Assembly: GCA_964610465.1 (NCBI GenBank) | Contig: CAZSWA010000003.1 | Location: 6,245-70,244, forward strand | Direction: 5' to 3' | Length of the DNA: 64,000 bases | Source: an uncultured Gammaproteobacteria bacterium | GTDB taxonomy: Bacteria > Patescibacteriota > Microgenomatia > Levybacterales > UBA12049 | In this document: piece by piece, positions 8,355-51,958 of the stretch | Layout: the number at the start of each line of letters is the position of its first letter | How positions within the stretch are numbered: the first letter of the stretch is position 1 | Notes under the pieces: model-generated | What the model was told of the DNA's origin: nothing | The model's database searches: none | What the model saw: the letters and a program-made list of their open reading frames with translations, nothing else | Made by a program: the position numbers and the translations under genes

Positions 8355-10358
8355 ATGAAAAAATATTTTTTACATATATTGATCTGTGACATCATTGCAG
8401 TAGTCTTTGGAGCTTTTTTCTTTACCCGATTTCTTCCCAATACAAATTCTGTACAAGTAGTCGATTTTAAGGATACTCTCCAGACCACACCAGTATTGTC
8501 ATCAAGCAGTGCAATTATCAATCATTCAATTACTCCTGTAGTATCAAACCAATGGTATAGTTCGATTTATAAAAAATTTCCAACCCAGCCAATTTTTGCC
8601 TTACCACTTGCATATATGCTTTCACCTAATGGAATTTCTTTTTCTTACCCTGATGTAACAGCATCTACCAATACTATCACTGCTCCCTTTAATGAAGACT
8701 TTACAGTAGGATTATCTGACCAGTTTGTAAAACCAAGTATTACCTCAATTGGTGATTGGAATATTGGTATCAGTCTTCTAACCCATACCAATAATTCACT
8801 CTCTTTTATACTCGCTCATGGAGTACCAAGCACTCTGCTTCACGTAAAAGCAAATTCTGTAGTGATTCATTTGCAGGACAATTCCAAAATATATAATCAA
8901 AATAAAACATTAGTTAACTCAAAAACATTCTCTACTGATTCTTTTCTTTTGCAGATACATAATCATAACTACATTCTTGTATTGAATAAAACAAATACTA
9001 TCGCAGTTGATAAAAATACTCTCACTATCGCAAATCCCACAACTCTTTATGTCGGTCTTCTTGATGACAGAAGTCATTATAATAACTTCCTGCAAACAGC
9101 AGATACTGAAATCCTCGGAACTTCGGCAATTCCGACTTTAAGTGACTCAGCACTCAGTGTAAAATATCAATTAGCTACCAACACCGGTAAACAACTTCTT
9201 ATTGCCCTCTATCCTCATCAATATGACACGCTTACTGAAAAAGTAAATGTACTTGGCAAATATGATACTATCCGGGGAAGTCTCAATCTTATAACTGCTG
9301 ATACATTTTCTACATCAATTGCGTTAGTTATGCCACCTGATTCATTTTCCAAATTATCAAGCGCTCATACAGATCTTGTGAATCAAGTAAAAACAGATAT
9401 AGCCGGAGTTTTAAGAAAACCAAAGCCAGATAGCACAGATTATTATCTGGGTACCTGGTTTGGAGAAATTGATAATCTTTTGCTTCTTGCAGATACTTTA
9501 GGATTAACTGAACAGAAAAATGCACTTTTGCAATTTGTAGAACCTATTTTTGTCAAAAGTCTCTCTAATTTCCATTATGATACCAAACAAAATAGTCTTA
9601 TTGCTGATTCTCCTGAATTTGGCAACGAAAAATTAAATGACCATCATTTCCATTATGGGTACTATATTCGTACAGCCTCAGTGCTTGCTAAATTTGACCC
9701 GGCAAGTCTTAGCAAAACCAAAACAATAATTACTAAAATGGTAAATGATATTGCAACTATAGATAGAAATTCAGAAAATTATCCCTATCTTCGCAATTTT
9801 GATGCCTACGAAAGCCACTCCTGGGCTGACGGGTATGCTGACTTTGCAGATGGCAATAATCAGGAGTCTTCATCTGAAGCAATCAACGCCTGGTATGGAA
9901 TGTATTTGTGGAGCAAAGTGACCAATTCCCCAAAACTTGAGCAATACGCTTTATATTTGTACAACTCTGAAATTCTCGGCGCAAAATATTATTGGTTTAA
10001 TAGTACTGGTATTTATGACAAGCCTTACTCACATGCAATTGCTTCTTTAGTTTGGGGAGGCAAAGTAGATTTTGCAACCTGGTTTAGCAATGATACCAAT
10101 ATGAAATATGGTATTCAACTTTTGCCTATTACACCAGCATCTACGTACTTGGGAAGTTTTCAGGATATTGGCAAATATGATAGTGACTATCATGTAAACG
10201 AAGGGGATGAAACAAAATCATGGGGTGATTTATTTACTATCTGGAGGTCATTTTATGATGATAGAAAAGCACTCTCTTTCAAAGATGCAGTAAAGAGTTT
10301 TGATGATAAGAATACGAAGTCAATGCTGCTTTATATACTCTATCTCAATAGTAAATAA
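8355..10358 (+). CDS. glycoside hydrolase family 81 endo-beta-1,3-glucanase, secreted/membrane-anchored
   Basis: 'NDHHFHYGYYIRTASVLAKFD' matches the GH81 signature. 'ESSSEA' places two Glu four residues apart, as in the GH81 catalytic pair. N-terminal hydrophobic anchor. Confidence 0.7.
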   Translation: MKKYFLHILICDIIAVVFGAFFFTRFLPNTNSVQVVDFKDTLQTTPVLSSSSAIINHSITPVVSNQWYSSIYKKFPTQPIFALPLAYMLSPNGISFSYPDVTASTNTITAPFNEDFTVGLSDQFVKPSITSIGDWNIGISLLTHTNNSLSFILAHGVPSTLLHVKANSVVIHLQDNSKIYNQNKTLVNSKTFSTDSFLLQIHNHNYILVLNKTNTIAVDKNTLTIANPTTLYVGLLDDRSHYNNFLQTADTEILGTSAIPTLSDSALSVKYQLATNTGKQLLIALYPHQYDTLTEKVNVLGKYDTIRGSLNLITADTFSTSIALVMPPDSFSKLSSAHTDLVNQVKTDIAGVLRKPKPDSTDYYLGTWFGEIDNLLLLADTLGLTEQKNALLQFVEPIFVKSLSNFHYDTKQNSLIADSPEFGNEKLNDHHFHYGYYIRTASVLAKFDPASLSKTKTIITKMVNDIATIDRNSENYPYLRNFDAYESHSWADGYADFADGNNQESSSEAINAWYGMYLWSKVTNSPKLEQYALYLYNSEILGAKYYWFNSTGIYDKPYSHAIASLVWGGKVDFATWFSNDTNMKYGIQLLPITPASTYLGSFQDIGKYDSDYHVNEGDETKSWGDLFTIWRSFYDDRKALSFKDAVKSFDDKNTKSMLLYILYLNSK

Positions 10359-10365
10359 ACTACTC

Positions 10366-10425
10366 GACAATATATTGTCATACAGAGGCTAAAAGCCGAA
10401 GGATCTCATCTGAAAAGATTCTTCG
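10366..10425. terminator. convergent terminator region: perfect 14-nt palindrome GACAATATATTGTC plus a 10-bp hairpin (CGAAGGATCT..AGATTCTTCG)
   Basis: Lies between the GH81 stop (10358) and the stop of the minus-strand gene at 10456. On the minus strand the hairpin is followed by CTTTT. Confidence 0.35.
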
Positions 10426-10455
10426 CTGTGCTCAGAATGACAAGCTATAATCCAG

Positions 10456-10740
10456 CTATTCTACTGGCTCATCGTACTCCGTATTTTGTAAATCCTCAGC
10501 TCCGGGAATATCTCCTTCAACTGCATTTTCAGGAACGTCTTCACTTTGTCGCATATTGGCTTTTATATAGTCAAACAACTCTTCATCAGTAAGCAATAAA
10601 TCTCCTTGTGTATGCCATTCTTTGTAATGATCTTTCACCAGATGAAACAGAATATTAAATGAATCATATGGTGCATCAGGCTCGTTGTTGTAAACTACAA
10701 TATCTTTTCCGCACTTTGGACAAGAAACACGATAATACAT
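10456..10740 (-). CDS. hypothetical protein with N-terminal CPKCG zinc-ribbon-like motif and acidic C-terminus
   Basis: ORF with native codon usage. Only a single CxxC pair is present. Confidence 0.4.
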   Translation of the reverse strand: MYYRVSCPKCGKDIVVYNNEPDAPYDSFNILFHLVKDHYKEWHTQGDLLLTDEELFDYIKANMRQSEDVPENAVEGDIPGAEDLQNTEYDEPVE

Positions 10741-10813
10741 ACTTTAGATTATTATACACCATGTCAAGTACCCCTTTTGTTATTACGCTAAAATCAGAAT
10801 ATATCCTATAGCT

Positions 10814-10867
10814 TTGACATGCGCTGTGTATTTTGCTATACTCGCCTCGTTTGCACATTGATATAAT
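10814..10867 (+). promoter_or_regulatory. tandem sigma70-like promoters: TTGACA-17-TATACT (10814-10842) and extended -10 TGATATAAT (10859-10867)
   Basis: Consensus -35 with 17-nt spacing to a near-consensus -10. The cassette ORF starts about 100 nt downstream behind an AGGAGG SD. Confidence 0.55.
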
Positions 10868-10967
10868 TTCCACAGGTGGATACGAGATTTAAGGTTTTAA
10901 TAAGTCTTAAGTCTTGTGTCCATCAAAGTGGTGGATACAGAATGGAACATCGCTCAGGAGGACAGCT

Positions 10968-11294
10968 ATGATTGACACAACGGTACTATTTGCAATGCTA
11001 CTAGCAGCGATAGGAATCATCATCCTTATCGCTCTACCGTACCTGATAATCCTAGTAAGAACGCCTGTTGTTACACCAGAAGAACTGGAACAGGCCTGTC
11101 GTAATATGAGAGCAAACGAAGAGAAAACGTTTCGTATAAGAAAACCATACTCTTATAACAATGTACAGTATGTAAACAATGTACCTATCCGGCTTGCAGC
11201 TCAAGGAGGTCATTTCGTCTTTCATTTCTCCAAACCCTGGGTAACAGTCTATTGCAGTCAACCCGTCCATACAAGAACGGATTCTCCTGCATAA
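10968..11294 (+). CDS. small single-pass membrane protein, atypical codon usage
   Basis: Start taken at 'MIDTT', which follows the AGGAGG SD. One N-terminal TM helix. Frequent CTA/ATC/ACG/CCG/CTG codons and higher GC than neighbours. Framed by the consensus promoter and a GC-rich terminator. Confidence 0.5.
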   Translation: MIDTTVLFAMLLAAIGIIILIALPYLIILVRTPVVTPEELEQACRNMRANEEKTFRIRKPYSYNNVQYVNNVPIRLAAQGGHFVFHFSKPWVTVYCSQPVHTRTDSPA

Positions 11295-11333
11295 AGCGCA
11301 GGAAGAAATCGAATGGATGCTGATGTAAACAGA

Positions 11334-11380
11334 GGTCCCGCCCTTTTTCTGGGCGGGACCATTTTCTTTTTTTTATTTTT
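11334..11380 (+). terminator. rho-independent terminator (GGTCCCGCCC-TTTTTCT-GGGCGGGACC followed by a T-run)
   Basis: Perfect 10-bp GC stem followed by a T-rich tract, seen directly in the sequence. Confidence 0.85.
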
Positions 11381-11432
11381 GAAACTAGATATTTGAATTT
11401 ACAATCCTCTCTATTTACGCTATTATTTCAGT

Positions 11433-11834
11433 ATGAATCATATTACAAACTCGAGAAAAACATTTACAAAAACCAAAGACTTTCAGTACTACAAAGGAAC
11501 CATCTGGACTAATCATGCGCTTGAAAGGCTTGAAGAACGTGGATTTACACAAGAGATGGCATATCAGGCCTTTAACAAACCAGATAAAGCAATTCCAGGG
11601 AAAGAGTCGGGAACTACAGAATTTCGAAAACGTTTTGAGAATTCGATTGTTACTGTCATTGCAACCAAAAATGAACACAATGAATGGATAGTTATCTCCT
11701 GCTGGATTGACCCGCCTCTTGAAGGTACAAAAGATGCCGCCAAAAAAGAAGCATATGAAAAGTATCATAAAGCCTCAACTCTTGGGAAACTTTGGATAAT
11801 TTTCTTAAGACAAATCGGATTGGCAAAGTATTAA
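11433..11834 (+). CDS. DUF4258-family protein (RelE/BrnT-like toxin fold candidate), orphan
   Basis: 'TNHALERLEERGFT' matches the DUF4258 'HAleRmeeRgi' core. Confidence 0.5.
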   Translation: MNHITNSRKTFTKTKDFQYYKGTIWTNHALERLEERGFTQEMAYQAFNKPDKAIPGKESGTTEFRKRFENSIVTVIATKNEHNEWIVISCWIDPPLEGTKDAAKKEAYEKYHKASTLGKLWIIFLRQIGLAKY

Positions 11835-11879
11835 AAATTGTCATTTCTAGGAGCAATATTTGTTTTTTCGCTGTTACTT

Positions 11880-12365
11880 TTATTCCACCTTAATTTGAGT
11901 AATTGTATACACAATTTCTCCTGAGGGTGCTTTGACTATTGCTTTATCTCCTACTTTTTTCCCCATCAATGCTTTCCCAAGAGGAGAATTTTGGGATATT
12001 TTCCCGCTACTTGGATCTGCTTCAAAATCTCCAACTATCGTATATGCAACTCTTTTTTCTTTGAAAGTAAGAGTTACTTGAGTTCCCAAAATAACTGTAT
12101 CAGTTGAATTCGCCTCAATAATTTTTGCGTATTTTATAAAATGTGATAAACGTGCAAGATTGCTATCAATTGAAGATAATTTTGCACGGGATGCTTTATA
12201 ATAACCGTTTTCTCGTAGATCTCCCATTTCACGCGAAATCTTTACATGGTAGACTGCGTCTTTCCTGTCTTCCAATAGTTTTTGATATTCTGTTTTGATT
12301 TTTTCATATCCTTCTTTGGTAAAAGGGATAGGATGTATTTTCCTGATAGGACTTGTCCTTCTCAT
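11880..12365 (-). CDS. greA: transcription elongation factor GreA
   Basis: 'GDLRENGYY' coiled-coil motif and a C-terminal FKBP-like 'SPLGKALMGKKVGD'. Confidence 0.9.
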   Translation of the reverse strand: MRRTSPIRKIHPIPFTKEGYEKIKTEYQKLLEDRKDAVYHVKISREMGDLRENGYYKASRAKLSSIDSNLARLSHFIKYAKIIEANSTDTVILGTQVTLTFKEKRVAYTIVGDFEADPSSGKISQNSPLGKALMGKKVGDKAIVKAPSGEIVYTITQIKVE

Positions 12366-12438
12366 ACTGACTCATTGTAACACATCGTAGATATAGATAA
12401 GTCAGCTAAAATACGCTATGATAACAATATAATTTACT

Positions 12439-12963
12439 ATGCGAAAGATACTTATTGCAGGTATTATCTCTTTATTATTTATAAGTGTAACTAATATCAG
12501 CTATGCTGACTCCCCTTATGTGCTGCCCTATCCTTCTACTATGCCTGGAAGTTTTCTGTACAAATTACATGTACTATCAGAACAACTCTTAAAGTATTGG
12601 TATTTCGGAAACTTCGGACAGTTTACCTACAATCTAAAGTTATCAGACAAATATCTGGTGGAAGCAAAAACACTATTTGAATACAAGCAATATCTTCTGG
12701 CTGATAGAGCACTTAAAAAATCAGATAGTTATTTTGTACAAACCATGCCCTATCTCACAAAGCTAAAAGATGAATGTGTTGATATTACTGACAAAAAAAA
12801 TACTTTGCATGATGCTGCTCAAAAACATATAGAAACTCTAGAAAAAGCAAGAGCTGATATTCCTGAATCGTTTGTATGGCGTCCTGAAAAAGCATCAGCG
12901 ACTTCACTTTATCTACAAACTGATATTACAAATGCAATTGCCATACGACAAAAATATTTATGA
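12439..12963 (+). CDS. secreted hypothetical protein (signal peptide)
   Basis: N-terminal signal peptide 'LLFISVTNISYADS'. Overlaps the next gene by 4 nt (ATGA). Confidence 0.45.
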   Translation: MRKILIAGIISLLFISVTNISYADSPYVLPYPSTMPGSFLYKLHVLSEQLLKYWYFGNFGQFTYNLKLSDKYLVEAKTLFEYKQYLLADRALKKSDSYFVQTMPYLTKLKDECVDITDKKNTLHDAAQKHIETLEKARADIPESFVWRPEKASATSLYLQTDITNAIAIRQKYL

Positions 12964-14099
12964 AAAATATAGTGACAATATTCTATAGTGTAACATTATT
13001 CTTGTTTACTGCATTTTCTTATATATTTATTGACCCGAATTTCTTTTATTTTCATACTCTTTACACAGGATTTTATGCATTGCAAAGAATTACAACAACT
13101 TTGTTTTATCTTTTCCTCATTTTAATTCTCTTTGGTATCTACTGGTTTTTCTTAAATTTGGCACGATACAAAAAACTCTCAATGACAGATATCAAAATCT
13201 TGCTCCTTATTACCGTACTCAATTTATTACTTTCTTATCCTGCGATGCTTTCCTTTGATATTTTCAATTACACAACAACAGCAAAAGTGCTGTATCACTA
13301 TCATGAAAACCCTTATATTATAATGCCAATAGAGTTTTCTAATGACCCTTTTCTCCATTATACTCGTGCTGCCAATAAAACAGCTTTGTATGGACCTATA
13401 TGGCTTATGGCAAGTGGTATCCCCTATATGGCAGGTTTTGAAAATTATTTGTTGATTCTTCTTAACTTTAAAGTAATTGCACTATTTTTTTACCTTGCAA
13501 CAATTTGGGTTATCTGGAAATTATCAAAGAGTGTTTTGGCTGTTACTTTTTTTGCATTCAATCCTCTTGTGATTATTGAATCATTGGTCAGTGGACATAA
13601 TGATGTAGTTATGATGTTTTTAGCATTATTTTCATTATATCTTTTATTGCAAAAACGGATAGTGTTATCAGCAGGAACTTTGCTCCTGTCGGTACTAATC
13701 AAATATTCAACCTTTTTTCTTTTACCTGTATATATTTTTGTTTACCTGCAAACGAAGAAACATAAGAAATTACATCATGAAAAAATCTATTTCTACTTAG
13801 CAATCCTTATGCTGGTGATATTTTTCTTGTCTCCTATCCGAGAAGAACTATATTCCTGGTATGCAATATGGTTTTTAAGTTTTATGAGTTTGATATATGG
13901 AAAAAATTTTCTCTCTTATCTTGCACTTGCGCTTTCTTTTGGACTTATGCTTGGATACATTCCATATATGTTGTTTGGTATTTATCTCCCTAAAACAACA
14001 CTTTTAAAGTACATCCTCATCTTTTTACCAGTATGCTATACGTTTATTTATTATTTCTTTCAAACCAAATTCCATTTGAGAAGTACTAAACTCATATAA
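12960..14099 (+). CDS. polytopic membrane protein, DUF2029/GT87-like glycosyltransferase candidate
   Basis: About 10 TM helices. The 'SGHNDVVMMFLAL' motif is typical of DUF2029-type GT-C enzymes. Confidence 0.45.
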   Translation: MKNIVTIFYSVTLFLFTAFSYIFIDPNFFYFHTLYTGFYALQRITTTLFYLFLILILFGIYWFFLNLARYKKLSMTDIKILLLITVLNLLLSYPAMLSFDIFNYTTTAKVLYHYHENPYIIMPIEFSNDPFLHYTRAANKTALYGPIWLMASGIPYMAGFENYLLILLNFKVIALFFYLATIWVIWKLSKSVLAVTFFAFNPLVIIESLVSGHNDVVMMFLALFSLYLLLQKRIVLSAGTLLLSVLIKYSTFFLLPVYIFVYLQTKKHKKLHHEKIYFYLAILMLVIFFLSPIREELYSWYAIWFLSFMSLIYGKNFLSYLALALSFGLMLGYIPYMLFGIYLPKTTLLKYILIFLPVCYTFIYYFFQTKFHLRSTKLI

Positions 14100-15324: not shown

Positions 15325-15660
15325 CTATTCATTATATCTGTGGGATTCGTCAGGATATGATTCTTCATTCTCTGATTCAACAATTTTTTCTTCCAGTTTT
15401 TCAACTTGTTTATTAATTCGTACTTCAAATTTCCTTCTATCACTCTCATCTTCAATTCCGTTTATAATATCTTGGCACATTGGACAAAGTCGTTCTTTAT
15501 TTTCAGTGTAATAAATAATGCTTGCGTCTCTATTTCTTAATCCATCCAAAACACGCTCCAAATTATCAATTTGATTGGTTATTTCTGTTGGATCAGTTGG
15601 AATATATGATTCCCATATTCCATGTTCTGTTTTTCTTCCGCATAGCGGACACTCTTCCAT
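15325..15660 (-). CDS. small zinc-ribbon protein (CPLCG ... CPMCQ), acidic
   Basis: Two CxxC pairs about 55 residues apart. Confidence 0.45.
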   Translation of the reverse strand: MEECPLCGRKTEHGIWESYIPTDPTEITNQIDNLERVLDGLRNRDASIIYYTENKERLCPMCQDIINGIEDESDRRKFEVRINKQVEKLEEKIVESENEESYPDESHRYNE

Positions 15661-16949: not shown

Positions 16950-17330
16950 ATGGAATGGCATGAAGCATATGATGTAAAACAAGACATTGAACATATTCTC
17001 CAAGTACTCAATCTTACCTATATCGACCCTTCAAGAATCTTTTGTTATAGAACGCATGGTTCATCGGCAAGAGCATATGCTCGCACATGGGCTTTCCCCA
17101 AAATTTTTCAAAAAGCTCTCAATGTACGGCCTGCATATGTAATTGAAGTACTGGCAACTCATTATGACAAACAGTCAGATAATAAAAAAACGGAAATCCT
17201 GATTCACGAATTACTTCATATTCCCAAAAACTTTTCAGGAGTATTGCTTCCCCATCATACAAGAAGTAGAAATTTACATGCAGTAGCTAATAAATTATTT
17301 AAAGAATACCTAAAGGCAACCAAAAGATAA
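16950..17330 (+). CDS. HExxH-motif putative Zn metallohydrolase (SprT/YgjP-like)
   Basis: 'IHELLHIPKNFSGVLLPHH'. Translationally coupled to the upstream GH (2-nt gap). Confidence 0.4.
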   Translation: MEWHEAYDVKQDIEHILQVLNLTYIDPSRIFCYRTHGSSARAYARTWAFPKIFQKALNVRPAYVIEVLATHYDKQSDNKKTEILIHELLHIPKNFSGVLLPHHTRSRNLHAVANKLFKEYLKATKR

Positions 17331-27051: not shown

Positions 27052-27540
27052 CTATCGAGTAACGTTGATCGTAGAACCCAATTCTGCAGCTGGAGCTGAA
27101 ACGGTAAGTCTGTTACTCCCACCTGCACCTGTAATGGCTTGAATGGTATATCCTGTTGTCCATGTGGTACCAGTACATCCTGATGATTGAACAGGTTGTG
27201 CTCCACCCGCTGTTAACGGGTCAACTGGAAGTGCTGCAATATACTGGGGAACTACTGCAGTACAGAATGTATTAAACGCAGTTGCAGCAATAGTTTGGGC
27301 TGTGGTGGTAATCCCTGGAGGCAACGTGCCTTTGTTGTCTGCCATATATTGATTGGTAGCATTCAGGATTGCATTGACATCTGCGCTTCTTTTAGTATTG
27401 TTTGATTGAGAAAACTGTCGCGCCGGGTTAATAGCAATAAGAGTGATTGCGAGTAAGATTGCAAGGATTCCGATGACAACCAAAAGCTCGATAAGAGTAA
27501 ACCCTTTTCCCTGTCTTTTGATAAGCAGTTGTTTATTCAT
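27052..27540 (-). CDS. type IV major pilin (prepilin leader MNKQLLIKRQGKG | FTLIELLVV, Glu5), copy 1
   Basis: Canonical class III signal peptide. Thr/Gly-rich C-terminal region. Confidence 0.85.
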   Translation of the reverse strand: MNKQLLIKRQGKGFTLIELLVVIGILAILLAITLIAINPARQFSQSNNTKRSADVNAILNATNQYMADNKGTLPPGITTTAQTIAATAFNTFCTAVVPQYIAALPVDPLTAGGAQPVQSSGCTGTTWTTGYTIQAITGAGGSNRLTVSAPAAELGSTINVTR

Positions 27541-28212
27541 AATCTATATTAAGATTTACATAAACTCTACCGTTTGTCAAGATATCAGTTTTGTATCTTA
27601 CAGATTTCATACCAGCCACTTGATTTCTTTATATAGTACAAAAAAAAGAATATTCTTGTTTAATTCTGTTTTAAGTTTTATCTTGTTACTGTAATCGTAG
27701 AACCCAATTCTGCAGCTGGAGCTGAAACGGTAAGTCTGTTACTCCCTGCAATTTGTTGAATCATATATCCTGTTGTCCATGTGGTACCAGTACATCCTGA
27801 TGATTGAACAGGTTGTGCTCCACCCGCTGTTAACGGGTCAACTGGAAGTGCTGCAATATACTGGGGAACTACTGCAGTACAGAATGTATTAAACGCAGTT
27901 GCAGCAATAGTTTGGGCTGTGGTGGTAATCCCTGGAGGCAACGTGCCTTTGTTGTCTGCCATATATTGATTGGTAGCATTCAGGATTGCATTGACATCTG
28001 CGCTTCTTTTAGTATTGTTTGATTGAGAAAACTGTCGCGCCGGGTTAATAGCAATAAGAGTGATTGCGAGTAAGATTGCAAGGATTCCGATGACAACCAA
28101 AAGCTCGATAAGAGTAAACCCTTTTCCCTGTCTTTTGATAAGCAGTTGTTTATTCATAATCTATATTAAGATTTACATAAACTCTACCGTTTGTCAAGAT
28201 ATCAGTTTTGCG
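27068..28212. repeat. tandem direct duplication (about 520-530 bp unit, period about 620 bp) containing a pilin gene plus its 55-bp upstream region
   Basis: 27068-27595 and 27692-28212 are near-identical. They differ only near the pilin 3' end (a 9-nt indel plus substitutions). Confidence 0.9.
27678..28157 (-). CDS. type IV major pilin, copy 2 (identical to copy 1 over about the first 130 residues)
   Basis: Same leader and core as copy 1. The C-terminus reads 'YMIQQIAGSNRLTVS...TITVTR' versus 'YTIQAITGAGGSNRLTVS...TINVTR'. Confidence 0.85.
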   Translation of the reverse strand: MNKQLLIKRQGKGFTLIELLVVIGILAILLAITLIAINPARQFSQSNNTKRSADVNAILNATNQYMADNKGTLPPGITTTAQTIAATAFNTFCTAVVPQYIAALPVDPLTAGGAQPVQSSGCTGTTWTTGYMIQQIAGSNRLTVSAPAAELGSTITVTR

Positions 28213-48071: not shown

Positions 48072-48284
48072 ACAAACGATATTATAGCGGAAAATCCGGA
48101 TTTACTCAAGGTTTAAATGTGTTTCGGGTTGGAGGAGTACCCGATATTACTCGGACAACTCCTCCGAAAAAATCCGCTAGAAGTGGAAACGCACTACTGT
48201 ACTTTCATGGTTCCGCAATTCTTGCGGTTATTTGCTGCTTGTTAACTATTTCATCTCCTTAAGCACTTTCATGCGCTTTTGTAA
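48072..48284 (-). other. GC-enriched, hairpin-rich 5' leader region upstream of rplS (possible r-protein leader or structured ncRNA)
   Basis: Hairpins GGAGGAGT..ACTCCTCC (with inner CCGA/TCGG), CCGCAA-TTC-TTGCGG, and the palindrome AAATCCGGATTT. Confidence 0.3.
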
Positions 48285-48899
48285 CTACTCTTCAATGCAT
48301 TGCTCTAAGCCGGGATCTGCTTCAAGAGCATATTCAACAGCATGAGCAGCATTAGTAACAGTATCATCAACTTCAGCTCCACGTGTGTGAATAGCTGCAT
48401 CAGCACTCTGAGCGGCCCACGCAGCATTAGCCGCTGCCTGAGCAGCAAGATAAGCTGGACCAGAAACATCGACAGCAACAGCACCCGGCAATGCAGCAAA
48501 ACGATTGTATATGGTGGAATGCTGCATTACCTGTTTTGCTGCCTCAATTGCTATCCTTGGACAACTGTCAGTTGGATAGTACTTGTTGAACTTTCTGAGC
48601 ACTTGCTCAGCCGAAAAGATAGCTAGAGCCGCATAGTCTTTCACCTTCCATCTCCAAGCACGAACTACGCGTAACTGCAACCGTGGTTGGTCATTAACTG
48701 ACCAAGCTCTAATTTCAACTTCCGCAAGGATTTCTCCTCGCGAATACATGAATGCATCCAATATGGATGTGGAACAATAAAGCTCCCTGCTATAAAGAGC
48801 AGCAAGTTCTTGTACTGTGTGCCATTTCCCAATGTCCCAATGGATTTCTCCATTTTCTGAGACAGGTCTTTCTTGATACCGCACAAACTTGTACAGCAT
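48285..48899 (-). CDS. hypothetical protein with Ala-rich C-terminal region (204 aa)
   Basis: Longest ORF in a locally GC-rich stretch. Third codon positions remain A/T-biased (GCT/GTT/GAT), indicating native coding. Overlapping ORFs in other frames are composition artefacts. Confidence 0.45.
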   Translation of the reverse strand: MLYKFVRYQERPVSENGEIHWDIGKWHTVQELAALYSRELYCSTSILDAFMYSRGEILAEVEIRAWSVNDQPRLQLRVVRAWRWKVKDYAALAIFSAEQVLRKFNKYYPTDSCPRIAIEAAKQVMQHSTIYNRFAALPGAVAVDVSGPAYLAAQAAANAAWAAQSADAAIHTRGAEVDDTVTNAAHAVEYALEADPGLEQCIEE

Positions 48900-51130: not shown

Positions 51131-51958
51131 TTAGCCGTTTCTTGGAATTTTAAGCATATTACCTGAATGAATAATATCTGGGTTATCTAGATTATTTGCT
51201 TTTGCGATATCTACCCATTTATATCCATCTCCATATGCTCGTACCGCTATATTCCAAAGACTATCGCCTTTTACAATTGTATAGGTATTTCCCGTTATTC
51301 TGTTTGTTATAACAGTATTTGTTTGAGGAGCAGCTGTTATTGTAACGGTTGCAATTTTTGGTTCAACACTTGGTATTACCAACTTGCTTCCTTTATAAAT
51401 TGTTCCAGGGTCGGTAATATTGTTTGCCTTTGCGATATCCACCCAATTATATCCACTTTTGTATTCCTTTTCTGCAATTACCCAGAGATTATCACCTGCA
51501 GCTACTGTATACGTTTGACCTTTAACTGGTTTTGCTACTGGATTGGTAGTTACTGTTTTCTTCTTTTGATTGGTTTTTTGTGCTATTGCTTTGGTAATGG
51601 TTGGTACTTGTGTGAGAGTTGGTGTTAGAGCAAAAGTTACCTTTACAGTAGGTACAATAGTGACAGTTGGTGATAAATGAACAGTTGGCGATATCTGTTT
51701 AGGTGCTTTGGAAACATTTTGAGTATTTTGGGCAATTTGTTGATTTGATTGACTGACTTTGTTTACTTTATTACTTTTCGCAAATGATAATAACAAGATT
51801 GTTGAGATAACTACTACTATGATTCCTAAAAGTAAACTGGTATATGATTCACCTAACTTAAAGAAGTCCAAAAAGCTTTGACGAGTGACTCCTTTTTGAG
51901 AAGATACCCGTGATGTTTTTGTTGTTTGAGATTTTTTGTTTCCTGCCTTTTTTGCCAT
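51131..51958 (-). CDS. LysM-domain peptidoglycan-binding protein (N-terminal TM, two C-terminal LysM repeats)
   Basis: Two 'YTV..GD.LW.IA...Y..GY.WVDIAKAN' LysM repeats. GGAGGTG SD upstream. Confidence 0.8.
   Translation of the reverse strand: MAKKAGNKKSQTTKTSRVSSQKGVTRQSFLDFFKLGESYTSLLLGIIVVVISTILLLSFAKSNKVNKVSQSNQQIAQNTQNVSKAPKQISPTVHLSPTVTIVPTVKVTFALTPTLTQVPTITKAIAQKTNQKKKTVTTNPVAKPVKGQTYTVAAGDNLWVIAEKEYKSGYNWVDIAKANNITDPGTIYKGSKLVIPSVEPKIATVTITAAPQTNTVITNRITGNTYTIVKGDSLWNIAVRAYGDGYKWVDIAKANNLDNPDIIHSGNMLKIPRNG

Follow-up and report, generated by a model that had tools for sequence, protein, structure and literature searches.

A Compact, Compositionally Atypical Cassette for an Orphan, Predicted Membrane Protein in a Patescibacterial Genome

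We analyzed a stretch of 64,000 nucleotides (nt) from contig CAZSWA010000003.1 of assembly GCA_964610465.1, a genome placed among the Patescibacteriota (Microgenomatia, Levybacterales), and refer to this whole stretch as the window. The subject of this report is a cassette of about 0.5 kilobase (kb) on its plus strand, located between a 94-amino-acid (aa) gene at 10456-10740 on the minus strand and a DUF4258-like gene at 11433-11834 on the plus strand. We interpret it as a genuine monocistronic unit for an orphan 108-aa single-pass membrane protein that most likely arrived by horizontal transfer as a complete moron-like cassette, and assign this interpretation a probability of roughly 0.6. An earlier note, made from the sequence alone, had described the region as a compact and compositionally foreign expression cassette with unusually strong signals, and our analysis bears this description out: the cassette is unlike its host in the type of promoter, the leader, the way translation starts, termination and codon usage. 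The reading of the cassette as foreign is plausible but unproven.

Results

Promoters and Leader RNA

Two promoter-like elements precede the gene. P1 (10814-10842, plus strand) combines a perfect -35 hexamer (TTGACA, 10814-10819) with a 17-nt spacer and an extended -10 element, in which TATACT (10837-10842) is preceded by TG at 10834-10835 (TGcTATACT). It agrees with the consensus at 11 of 12 positions, and transcription is predicted in silico to start near 10849. A scan of both strands of the window (128 kb in total) found seven sites with at least 11 of 12 matches, among which only P1 carries the TG extension. P2 (10859-10867, plus strand) is an extended -10 element, TGATATAAT, of the form TGaTATAAT, and is the sole TG-extended TAnAAT box on the plus strand of the cassette. 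Its predicted start, near 10874, falls 1-2 nt 5′ of a leader hairpin. The earlier note had picked out both elements, the first as TTGACA-17-TATACT and the second as an extended -10, together with a strong Shine-Dalgarno (SD) sequence, AGGAGG, which is indeed present at 10956-10961 on the plus strand and is separated by a 6-nt spacer from the ATG at 10968. The leader of the cassette is 95-120 nt long.

The leader RNA hairpin, which the earlier reader had overlooked, extends from 10875 to 10924 (plus strand) and consists of 23 contiguous base pairs (bp), 6 of them G-U, closed by a UAAU loop. It folds at -28.2 kcal/mol (z = -7.5) on the plus strand and at -9.6 kcal/mol on the minus strand, and this far weaker fold on the opposite strand indicates an RNA-level structure that belongs to the same strand as the open reading frame (ORF). 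When 25,576 segments of 60 nt from both strands were ranked by stability (mean -7.1, standard deviation 3.6), the leader hairpin came third and the terminator of the cassette fourth. We propose that the hairpin acts as a 5′-terminal stabilizer; its 23-bp stem could be a substrate for RNase III.

The 9-mer GGTGGATAC occurs twice on the plus strand, at the foot of the hairpin (10875-10883) and at 10930-10938. In the earlier note it had appeared as a direct repeat, "GTGGATAC", with copies about 45 nt apart; two copies are present, but the repeated unit is really the 9-mer and the spacing is 46 nt. The motif is not enriched in the 64-kb window, and the repeat makes more sense as a piece of the leader hairpin than as a separate element. 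The 3′ arm of the hairpin, GTGTCCATC (10916-10924, plus strand), has an alternative partner in the second GGTGGATAC copy. When the 5′ arm is left out of the folding, the 3′ arm pairs with this second copy in the centroid structure and with GGACA beside the SD in the minimum free energy (MFE) structure. The segments 10914-10928 and 10966-10980 are complementary at 13 of 15 positions. The leader also contains a 31-codon upstream ORF (10876-10971, plus strand), with a GTG located 8 nt past the P2 -10 box, a leaderless-type spacing, and a TGA that overlaps the main start codon as ATGA; since its GTG sits within the 23-bp stem, this ORF is probably a chance occurrence.

The ORF and Its Predicted Product

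The main ORF (10968-11294, plus strand) encodes 108 aa followed by a stop codon. The earlier note had reported 109 codons and one transmembrane (TM) helix; the ORF and the helix are both present, and its count of 109 includes the stop. Shuffling the transcript produced an open stretch of 126 codons or more in 0.9% of cases. Under a host codon model, the frame of the ORF scored best of the six (-0.03, versus -0.28 or lower), and its first and second codon positions have a base pattern like that of host genes. The TM helix lies near the N terminus, at about residues 6-30 (10983-11057), and its best 19-residue Kyte-Doolittle window, 2.99, was reached by none of 20,000 random ORFs with identical composition (P < 5e-5). 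Taken together, the SD spacing, ORF length, frame signal, codon-position pattern and TM helix argue that the ORF, which is very likely coding, is a true gene whose product spans the membrane once.

Beyond the helix, about 77 aa make up a C-terminal alpha/beta domain. In a low-confidence AlphaFold2 model (predicted local distance difference test, pLDDT, 66-67), a helix spans residues 4-31 and is followed by a second, short helix and six strands. Positive charges are absent from the N-terminal flank, MIDTT, and the net charge of the C-terminal domain is +4, which suggests an orientation with the N terminus out and the 77-aa domain probably facing the cytoplasm. As to function, our best guess, held with low confidence, is a membrane protein with a dispensable, accessory role in conflict or exclusion; the more specific roles of superinfection exclusion or membrane toxin are guesses. 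Within the ORF, the 10-mer AACAATGTAC occurs twice at 11157-11184 (plus strand), with 18 nt between the copies, which encode NNVQYV and NNVPIR. The pair looks like a small internal duplication.

Stop-Codon Stem-Loop and Terminator

At the 3′ end, a stem-loop at 11264-11319 (plus strand), likewise missed by the earlier reader, holds the stop codon TAA (11292-11294) in its loop. The surrounding segment, 11255-11375, folds at -45.5 kcal/mol (z = -5.4). An intrinsic terminator follows at 11334-11380 (plus strand), in which a hairpin (11334-11360) with the stem GGTCCCGCCC / GGGCGGGACC and a 7-nt loop is joined to a T-rich tract. Nine of the 10 bp in the stem are G-C and one is T-A, and the stem has a stability of -23 kcal/mol. 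The earlier note had announced a textbook terminator with an all-GC 10-bp stem; the terminator and the stem length stand, and the composition requires this small correction. In a scan of both strands of the window, this was the sole strong intrinsic terminator. The other three candidates have 4 G-C pairs and about -10 kcal/mol, and they lie within genes.

Contrast with Host Genes

Composition was compared with size-matched segments of 48 host genes in the window. The GC content of the ORF is 42.3%, against 35.7% for host segments (top 4.4%), and third codon positions are 35% GC in the ORF and 25% in the host. For mean log relative codon usage, the ORF scores -0.02 and the host 0.176 ± 0.059 (bottom 0.8%). 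The codons that the earlier note had named as atypical are rare in the host, where CTA makes up 6.7% of its synonymous set, CTG 6.4%, ACG 7.9%, CCG 12.6% and ATC 19.6%; its remarks on atypical codons and higher local GC are both upheld. We also made the comparison that the earlier note had suggested, with host genes presumed to be highly expressed. The codon scores of ribosomal protein L19 (0.17) and enolase (0.21) are typical of the host and differ from that of the cassette (-0.02), so high expression does not account for its codon deviation.

A feature of the host that the earlier reader had overlooked makes the cassette stand out more: its genes are leaderless in appearance, SD-poor and terminator-poor. 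An SD-like motif is absent at 47 of 60 genes in the window, and a strong SD is found at about 5 of the 60. At 20 of 61 genes, a -10-like (TAnAAT-like) box ends 4-13 nt upstream of the start codon, compared with 8.5% of random positions. The closeness of these boxes to start codons indicates that leaderless mRNAs are widespread, and the host genome appears to rely largely on them. The promoters at those genes have weak -35 elements, mostly matching at 2-3 of 6 positions, and the window is almost without intrinsic terminators.

Searches for Relatives and Mobile-Element Links

Among 5.8 billion clusters, and among 1.84 billion representatives searched with full HMMER, the ORF protein had no match but itself. 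Nothing significant was found in Pfam, PHROGs, PADLOC, NCBIfam or sequences from the PDB; fold searches were empty, and BFVD held no homologue. Translated and DNA searches of phage and plasmid collections gave no match to the cassette. Viral contigs contained no exact copy of the leader or terminator pattern, and metagenome contigs contained neither a relative of the ORF nor the leader pattern. The phage or plasmid connection advanced in the earlier note is not sustained by these PHROG, PADLOC, phage, plasmid and viral-contig searches, and the flanks carry GH81 and GreA rather than prophage genes.

The host itself is isolated. Its GreA is at most 60% identical to anything in 15 billion proteins, and the best matches come from Gottesmanbacteria, Levyibacteria and other Microgenomates/Patescibacteria. 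Across 80 GreA loci of GTDB representatives, no neighbors were shared with this locus except CysS, in two of them. At the cassette, the candidate target-site duplication, TTACGCTA...TCAG, which is common to both flanks, is not significant (P = 0.45), nor are flanking inverted repeats, and the annotated neighbors include no mobile-element genes.

Neighboring Genes and Other Features of the Window

The DUF4258-like gene downstream (11433-11834, plus strand) had been described in the earlier note as an orphan, toxin-like neighbor. Its DUF4258 match (22.9 bits, E = 1e-4) falls short of the Pfam cutoff of 25 bits. Nevertheless, the gene belongs to a Patescibacteria family that is well conserved, with 35 homologues at 48-62% identity; the motifs TNHAL.R...R and W..S.WIDPP..G..D are invariant, and the amphipathic tail at the C terminus (KAGFWGKxW...QLGF) is conserved too. 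The homologues in six other genomes occupy six differing contexts, made up mostly of housekeeping genes, with no ORF-like partner. The description as an orphan toxin gene is thus not retained; the gene looks like a core gene rather than the toxin of a toxin-antitoxin pair, and membership in a conserved family without a fixed partner lends no support to a toxin or conflict reading of the cassette. A -10 box of its own, 6 nt upstream of the ATG, makes the gene likely to be leaderless. A -10 box lies 6-9 nt before the ATG of this gene in the window and in three other genomes (L081, L083 and L084).

On the other side, the divergent 94-aa gene (10456-10740, minus strand) is a singleton at 90% identity. 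Its product has one CPxCG knuckle near the N terminus, weak zinc-ribbon-like matches and a very acidic C-terminal tail. A -10 box lies 10 nt before its ATG, and the gene has its intergenic region in common with P1 and P2; the product could be a regulator. Further neighbors of the cassette are a GH81 gene and genes for a small CxxC protein, GreA and CysS. At a distance of 5.6 kb, a 126-aa protein (16950-17330, plus strand) contains a clear 'putative phage metallopeptidase' domain (PF18894, E = 9e-19), the sole phage-flavored annotation noticed near the cassette.

Elsewhere in the window, the leaderless-type pattern is exemplified by starts at 775 (minus), 10740 (minus), 11433, 12365 (minus), 12439, 14140, 15782, 17358, 23455, 37333 and 48071 (minus), and some of the presumed leaderless genes begin with GTG or TTG. 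A LysM gene (51131-51958, minus strand) has a leader hairpin (52010-51951) that pairs CCAUCCUUCGC with GCGAAGGGAGG and partly sequesters the SD, GGGAGGUG; this hairpin may be a translational control element. Two tandem pilin-like genes (27052-27540 and 27678-28157, minus strand) have an N-terminal methylation motif, identical 25-nt upstream sequences and a GC content of 43-44%. The identical upstream sequences and raised GC point to a recent tandem duplication.

Discussion

If the cassette works as its signals suggest, a sigma-70-type RNA polymerase would initiate at P1 (near 10849) and/or P2 (near 10874). The first 50 nt of the transcript would form the 23-bp hairpin at or beside the 5′ end and would shield the mRNA from 5′-end-dependent decay, for example by RNase J; genomes of the Candidate Phyla Radiation (CPR) keep RNase J, RNase III and PNPase (PMC12641178). 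Ribosomes would initiate through AGGAGG, whereas most host genes appear leaderless. The N-terminal hydrophobic helix would then serve as a membrane anchor, with the 77-aa domain probably in the cytoplasm, and the stop-codon stem-loop and terminator would guard the 3′ end and block read-through into the DUF4258-like gene.

Several points weigh against a horizontal origin or against the signals on which this reading draws. Promoter-like sites over 9500-13000 are no more frequent than in shuffled sequences, and the functions of P1, P2 and the terminator are predicted from consensus matches only. The GC excess is moderate, and about 4% of native gene segments reach the GC content of the cassette. 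With no donor, homologue, nearby mobile-element gene or significant flanking repeat, the case for acquisition draws only on composition and expression signals. The window also holds a second outlier, a 204-aa gene at 48285-48899 (minus strand), flanked by pyrG and rplS, whose SD is GAAGGAG, whose GC content is 46% and whose codon score is 0.00; it also has a weak Pfam match to Imm5 (immunity protein). About 30 nt 5′ of its start lies the most stable hairpin of the window (48990-48931, minus strand, -32.4 kcal/mol), and a GC-rich hairpin (48131-48165) is found downstream. The combination of leader hairpin, SD and GC-rich, atypical codons in a second gene means that such cassettes could form a native minority class.

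Under that alternative, the ORF would be a native, lineage-specific gene from a minority host class with a 5′ leader, SD-dependent and either tightly regulated or highly expressed, and its hairpin, SD and unusual codons would reflect regulation together with constraints from RNA structure. The outlier at 48285-48899 shares the layout from the top-ranking hairpin to the 3′ hairpin, the LysM gene at 51131-51958 also has its SD in a leader hairpin, and in a host without sampled relatives most small proteins would seem orphan. We nevertheless regard a native class as unlikely, if well worth keeping in view. The codon deviations of the cassette ORF and the 48285-48899 gene are uncorrelated (r = 0.00), which led us to reject a common origin for the two and leaves either two independent imports or a native minority class with 5′ leaders. 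The SD-bearing genes at 15325-15660 and LysM are host-like in their codons (0.23 and 0.20), showing that a leader and an SD do not by themselves explain the composition of the cassette, and a canonical terminator and perfect -35 were not seen at the other SD-bearing genes examined. A more radical alternative holds that the cassette is a gene for a structured non-coding or dual-function RNA, with the ORF incidental. The strong promoter and terminator, raised GC, near-random codons, lack of protein homologues and folding of the whole transcript (z = -5.35) would all suit an RNA gene. However, the 391-nt body reaches only z = -1.7, so it is the leader hairpin and the 3′ end that account for the folding score of the whole transcript. 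No Rfam match passed the gathering threshold, those at E values up to 10 were at chance level and all driven by the terminator, and ARAGORN found no transfer-messenger RNA. As two distant tRNAs and chance matches were all that Rfam and ARAGORN returned, and the body is not significantly structured, we rejected this candidate as very improbable; the SD spacing, ORF length, frame signal and TM helix favor coding.

The remaining alternatives assign the cassette to toxin-antitoxin systems. In one, which we hold to be improbable, it would specify a membrane-toxin mRNA similar to those of type I systems, with a switch in its leader. The 3′ arm (10914-10928) has complementarity with the 5′ arm, the second GGTGGATAC and the SD/start region, and loss or occupation of the 5′ arm, by RNase III or a trans RNA, would let the 3′ arm mask the start and silence the gene. 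The product is small and has a TM helix, yet its 108 aa and folded C-terminal domain exceed the typical toxin size (under about 60 aa). Complementarity at 13 of 15 positions between 10914-10928 and 10966-10980 would fit a switch, as would the shift of the 3′ arm to GGACA by the SD (MFE fold) or to repeat copy 2 (centroid) once the 5′ arm is gone, but complementarities of this size are common (27 pairs in the 1.6 kb scanned) and the truncated leader shows no unusual degree of structure (z = +0.26). RNase III is among the enzymes kept in CPR genomes (PMC12641178). On the antisense strand of the cassette, no TAnAAT box was found at 10757-11440 and no promoter was matched, a prediction which cannot exclude an antisense promoter. 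The other alternative makes the ORF an antitoxin or immunity partner of the downstream gene, viewed as a toxin with a BECR/RelE fold. The ORF lies directly upstream on the same strand, DUF4258 modules typically place the antitoxin before the toxin (PMC11980606), and the amphipathic C-terminal tail could bring the DUF4258-like protein to the membrane. Against this stand the strong terminator and the separate, leaderless-type promoter between the genes, which led us to reject toxin-antitoxin pairing, and the lack of any DNA-binding or known antitoxin domain in the ORF. The six homologous DUF4258-like loci, with their different neighbors and nothing resembling the ORF, were a further ground for rejecting the partnership, and the family is about as conserved as GreA, consistent with a core gene rather than an addiction module. 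We give this pairing hardly any credence.

Apart from a type I system, the leader might operate as a three-way switch in which the 3′ arm is an anti-SD locked by the 5′ arm and freed by RNase III, 5′ trimming or a trans factor; once freed, it could pair with the decoy repeat or with the SD/start codon. This is a long shot. If true, it would mean that a toxic or conflict-related membrane protein is controlled post-transcriptionally in a mostly leaderless CPR bacterium.

Taken alone, the cassette would add another hypothetical small membrane protein to those on record. Its interest lies in the contrast with its surroundings, since a full set of canonical signals amid genes that mostly appear leaderless, SD-less, weak in their -35 elements and terminator-less would flag a candidate import far more clearly than composition alone does. 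Such a contrast in signals could mark horizontal acquisitions in CPR/Patescibacteria, where orphans abound and comparative data are thin. The leader hairpin, if it is a stabilizer or a switch, would provide a rare worked example of mRNA-level control in the little-studied CPR.

Comparison with Known Systems

The cassette recalls type II modules of the DUF4258 family (PF14076, RelE/ParE BECR superfamily) in having a small gene in the usual antitoxin position (PMC11980606). It differs from them in that it is not bicistronic and its upstream protein is membrane-anchored and has no DNA-binding domain, and the DUF4258-like family differs as well, having no partner in other Patescibacteria.

Type I toxins such as Hok, TisB, Fst and ZorO are hydrophobic proteins, usually under about 60 aa. 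Like them, the cassette encodes a small, single-TM protein, and its structured leader has alternative pairings able to mask the start. Unlike them, the protein has twice the usual size and an extra folded domain, and the promoter predictions and homology searches described above yielded no antisense promoter and no homology.

Stem-loops that stabilize mRNAs from the 5′ terminus are found in the 5′ untranslated region of E. coli ompA, in the Bacillus subtilis aprE and ermC leaders and in the phage SP82 stabilizer, and RNase J is a 5′-end-dependent nuclease that is blocked by such hairpins. The cassette resembles these cases in placing a stable hairpin within a few nt of its predicted 5′ end, followed by a strong SD, in a clade that keeps RNase J (PMC12641178). 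It departs from them in that its start is a predicted one and its 23-bp stem is long enough to be cut by RNase III instead.

The cassette can also be compared with phage morons. The concept reportedly goes back to Hendrix, Juhala and colleagues, who are said to have recognized independent promoter-gene-terminator units between phage genes, and many morons encode small membrane proteins. Unlike morons, the cassette lies outside any recognizable prophage, among GH81, CxxC protein, DUF4258-like and GreA genes, and shows no similarity to PHROGs, phages or viral contigs. Like morons, it consists of a single small gene with its own sigma-70-type promoter and factor-independent terminator, and its composition is unlike that of its neighbors.

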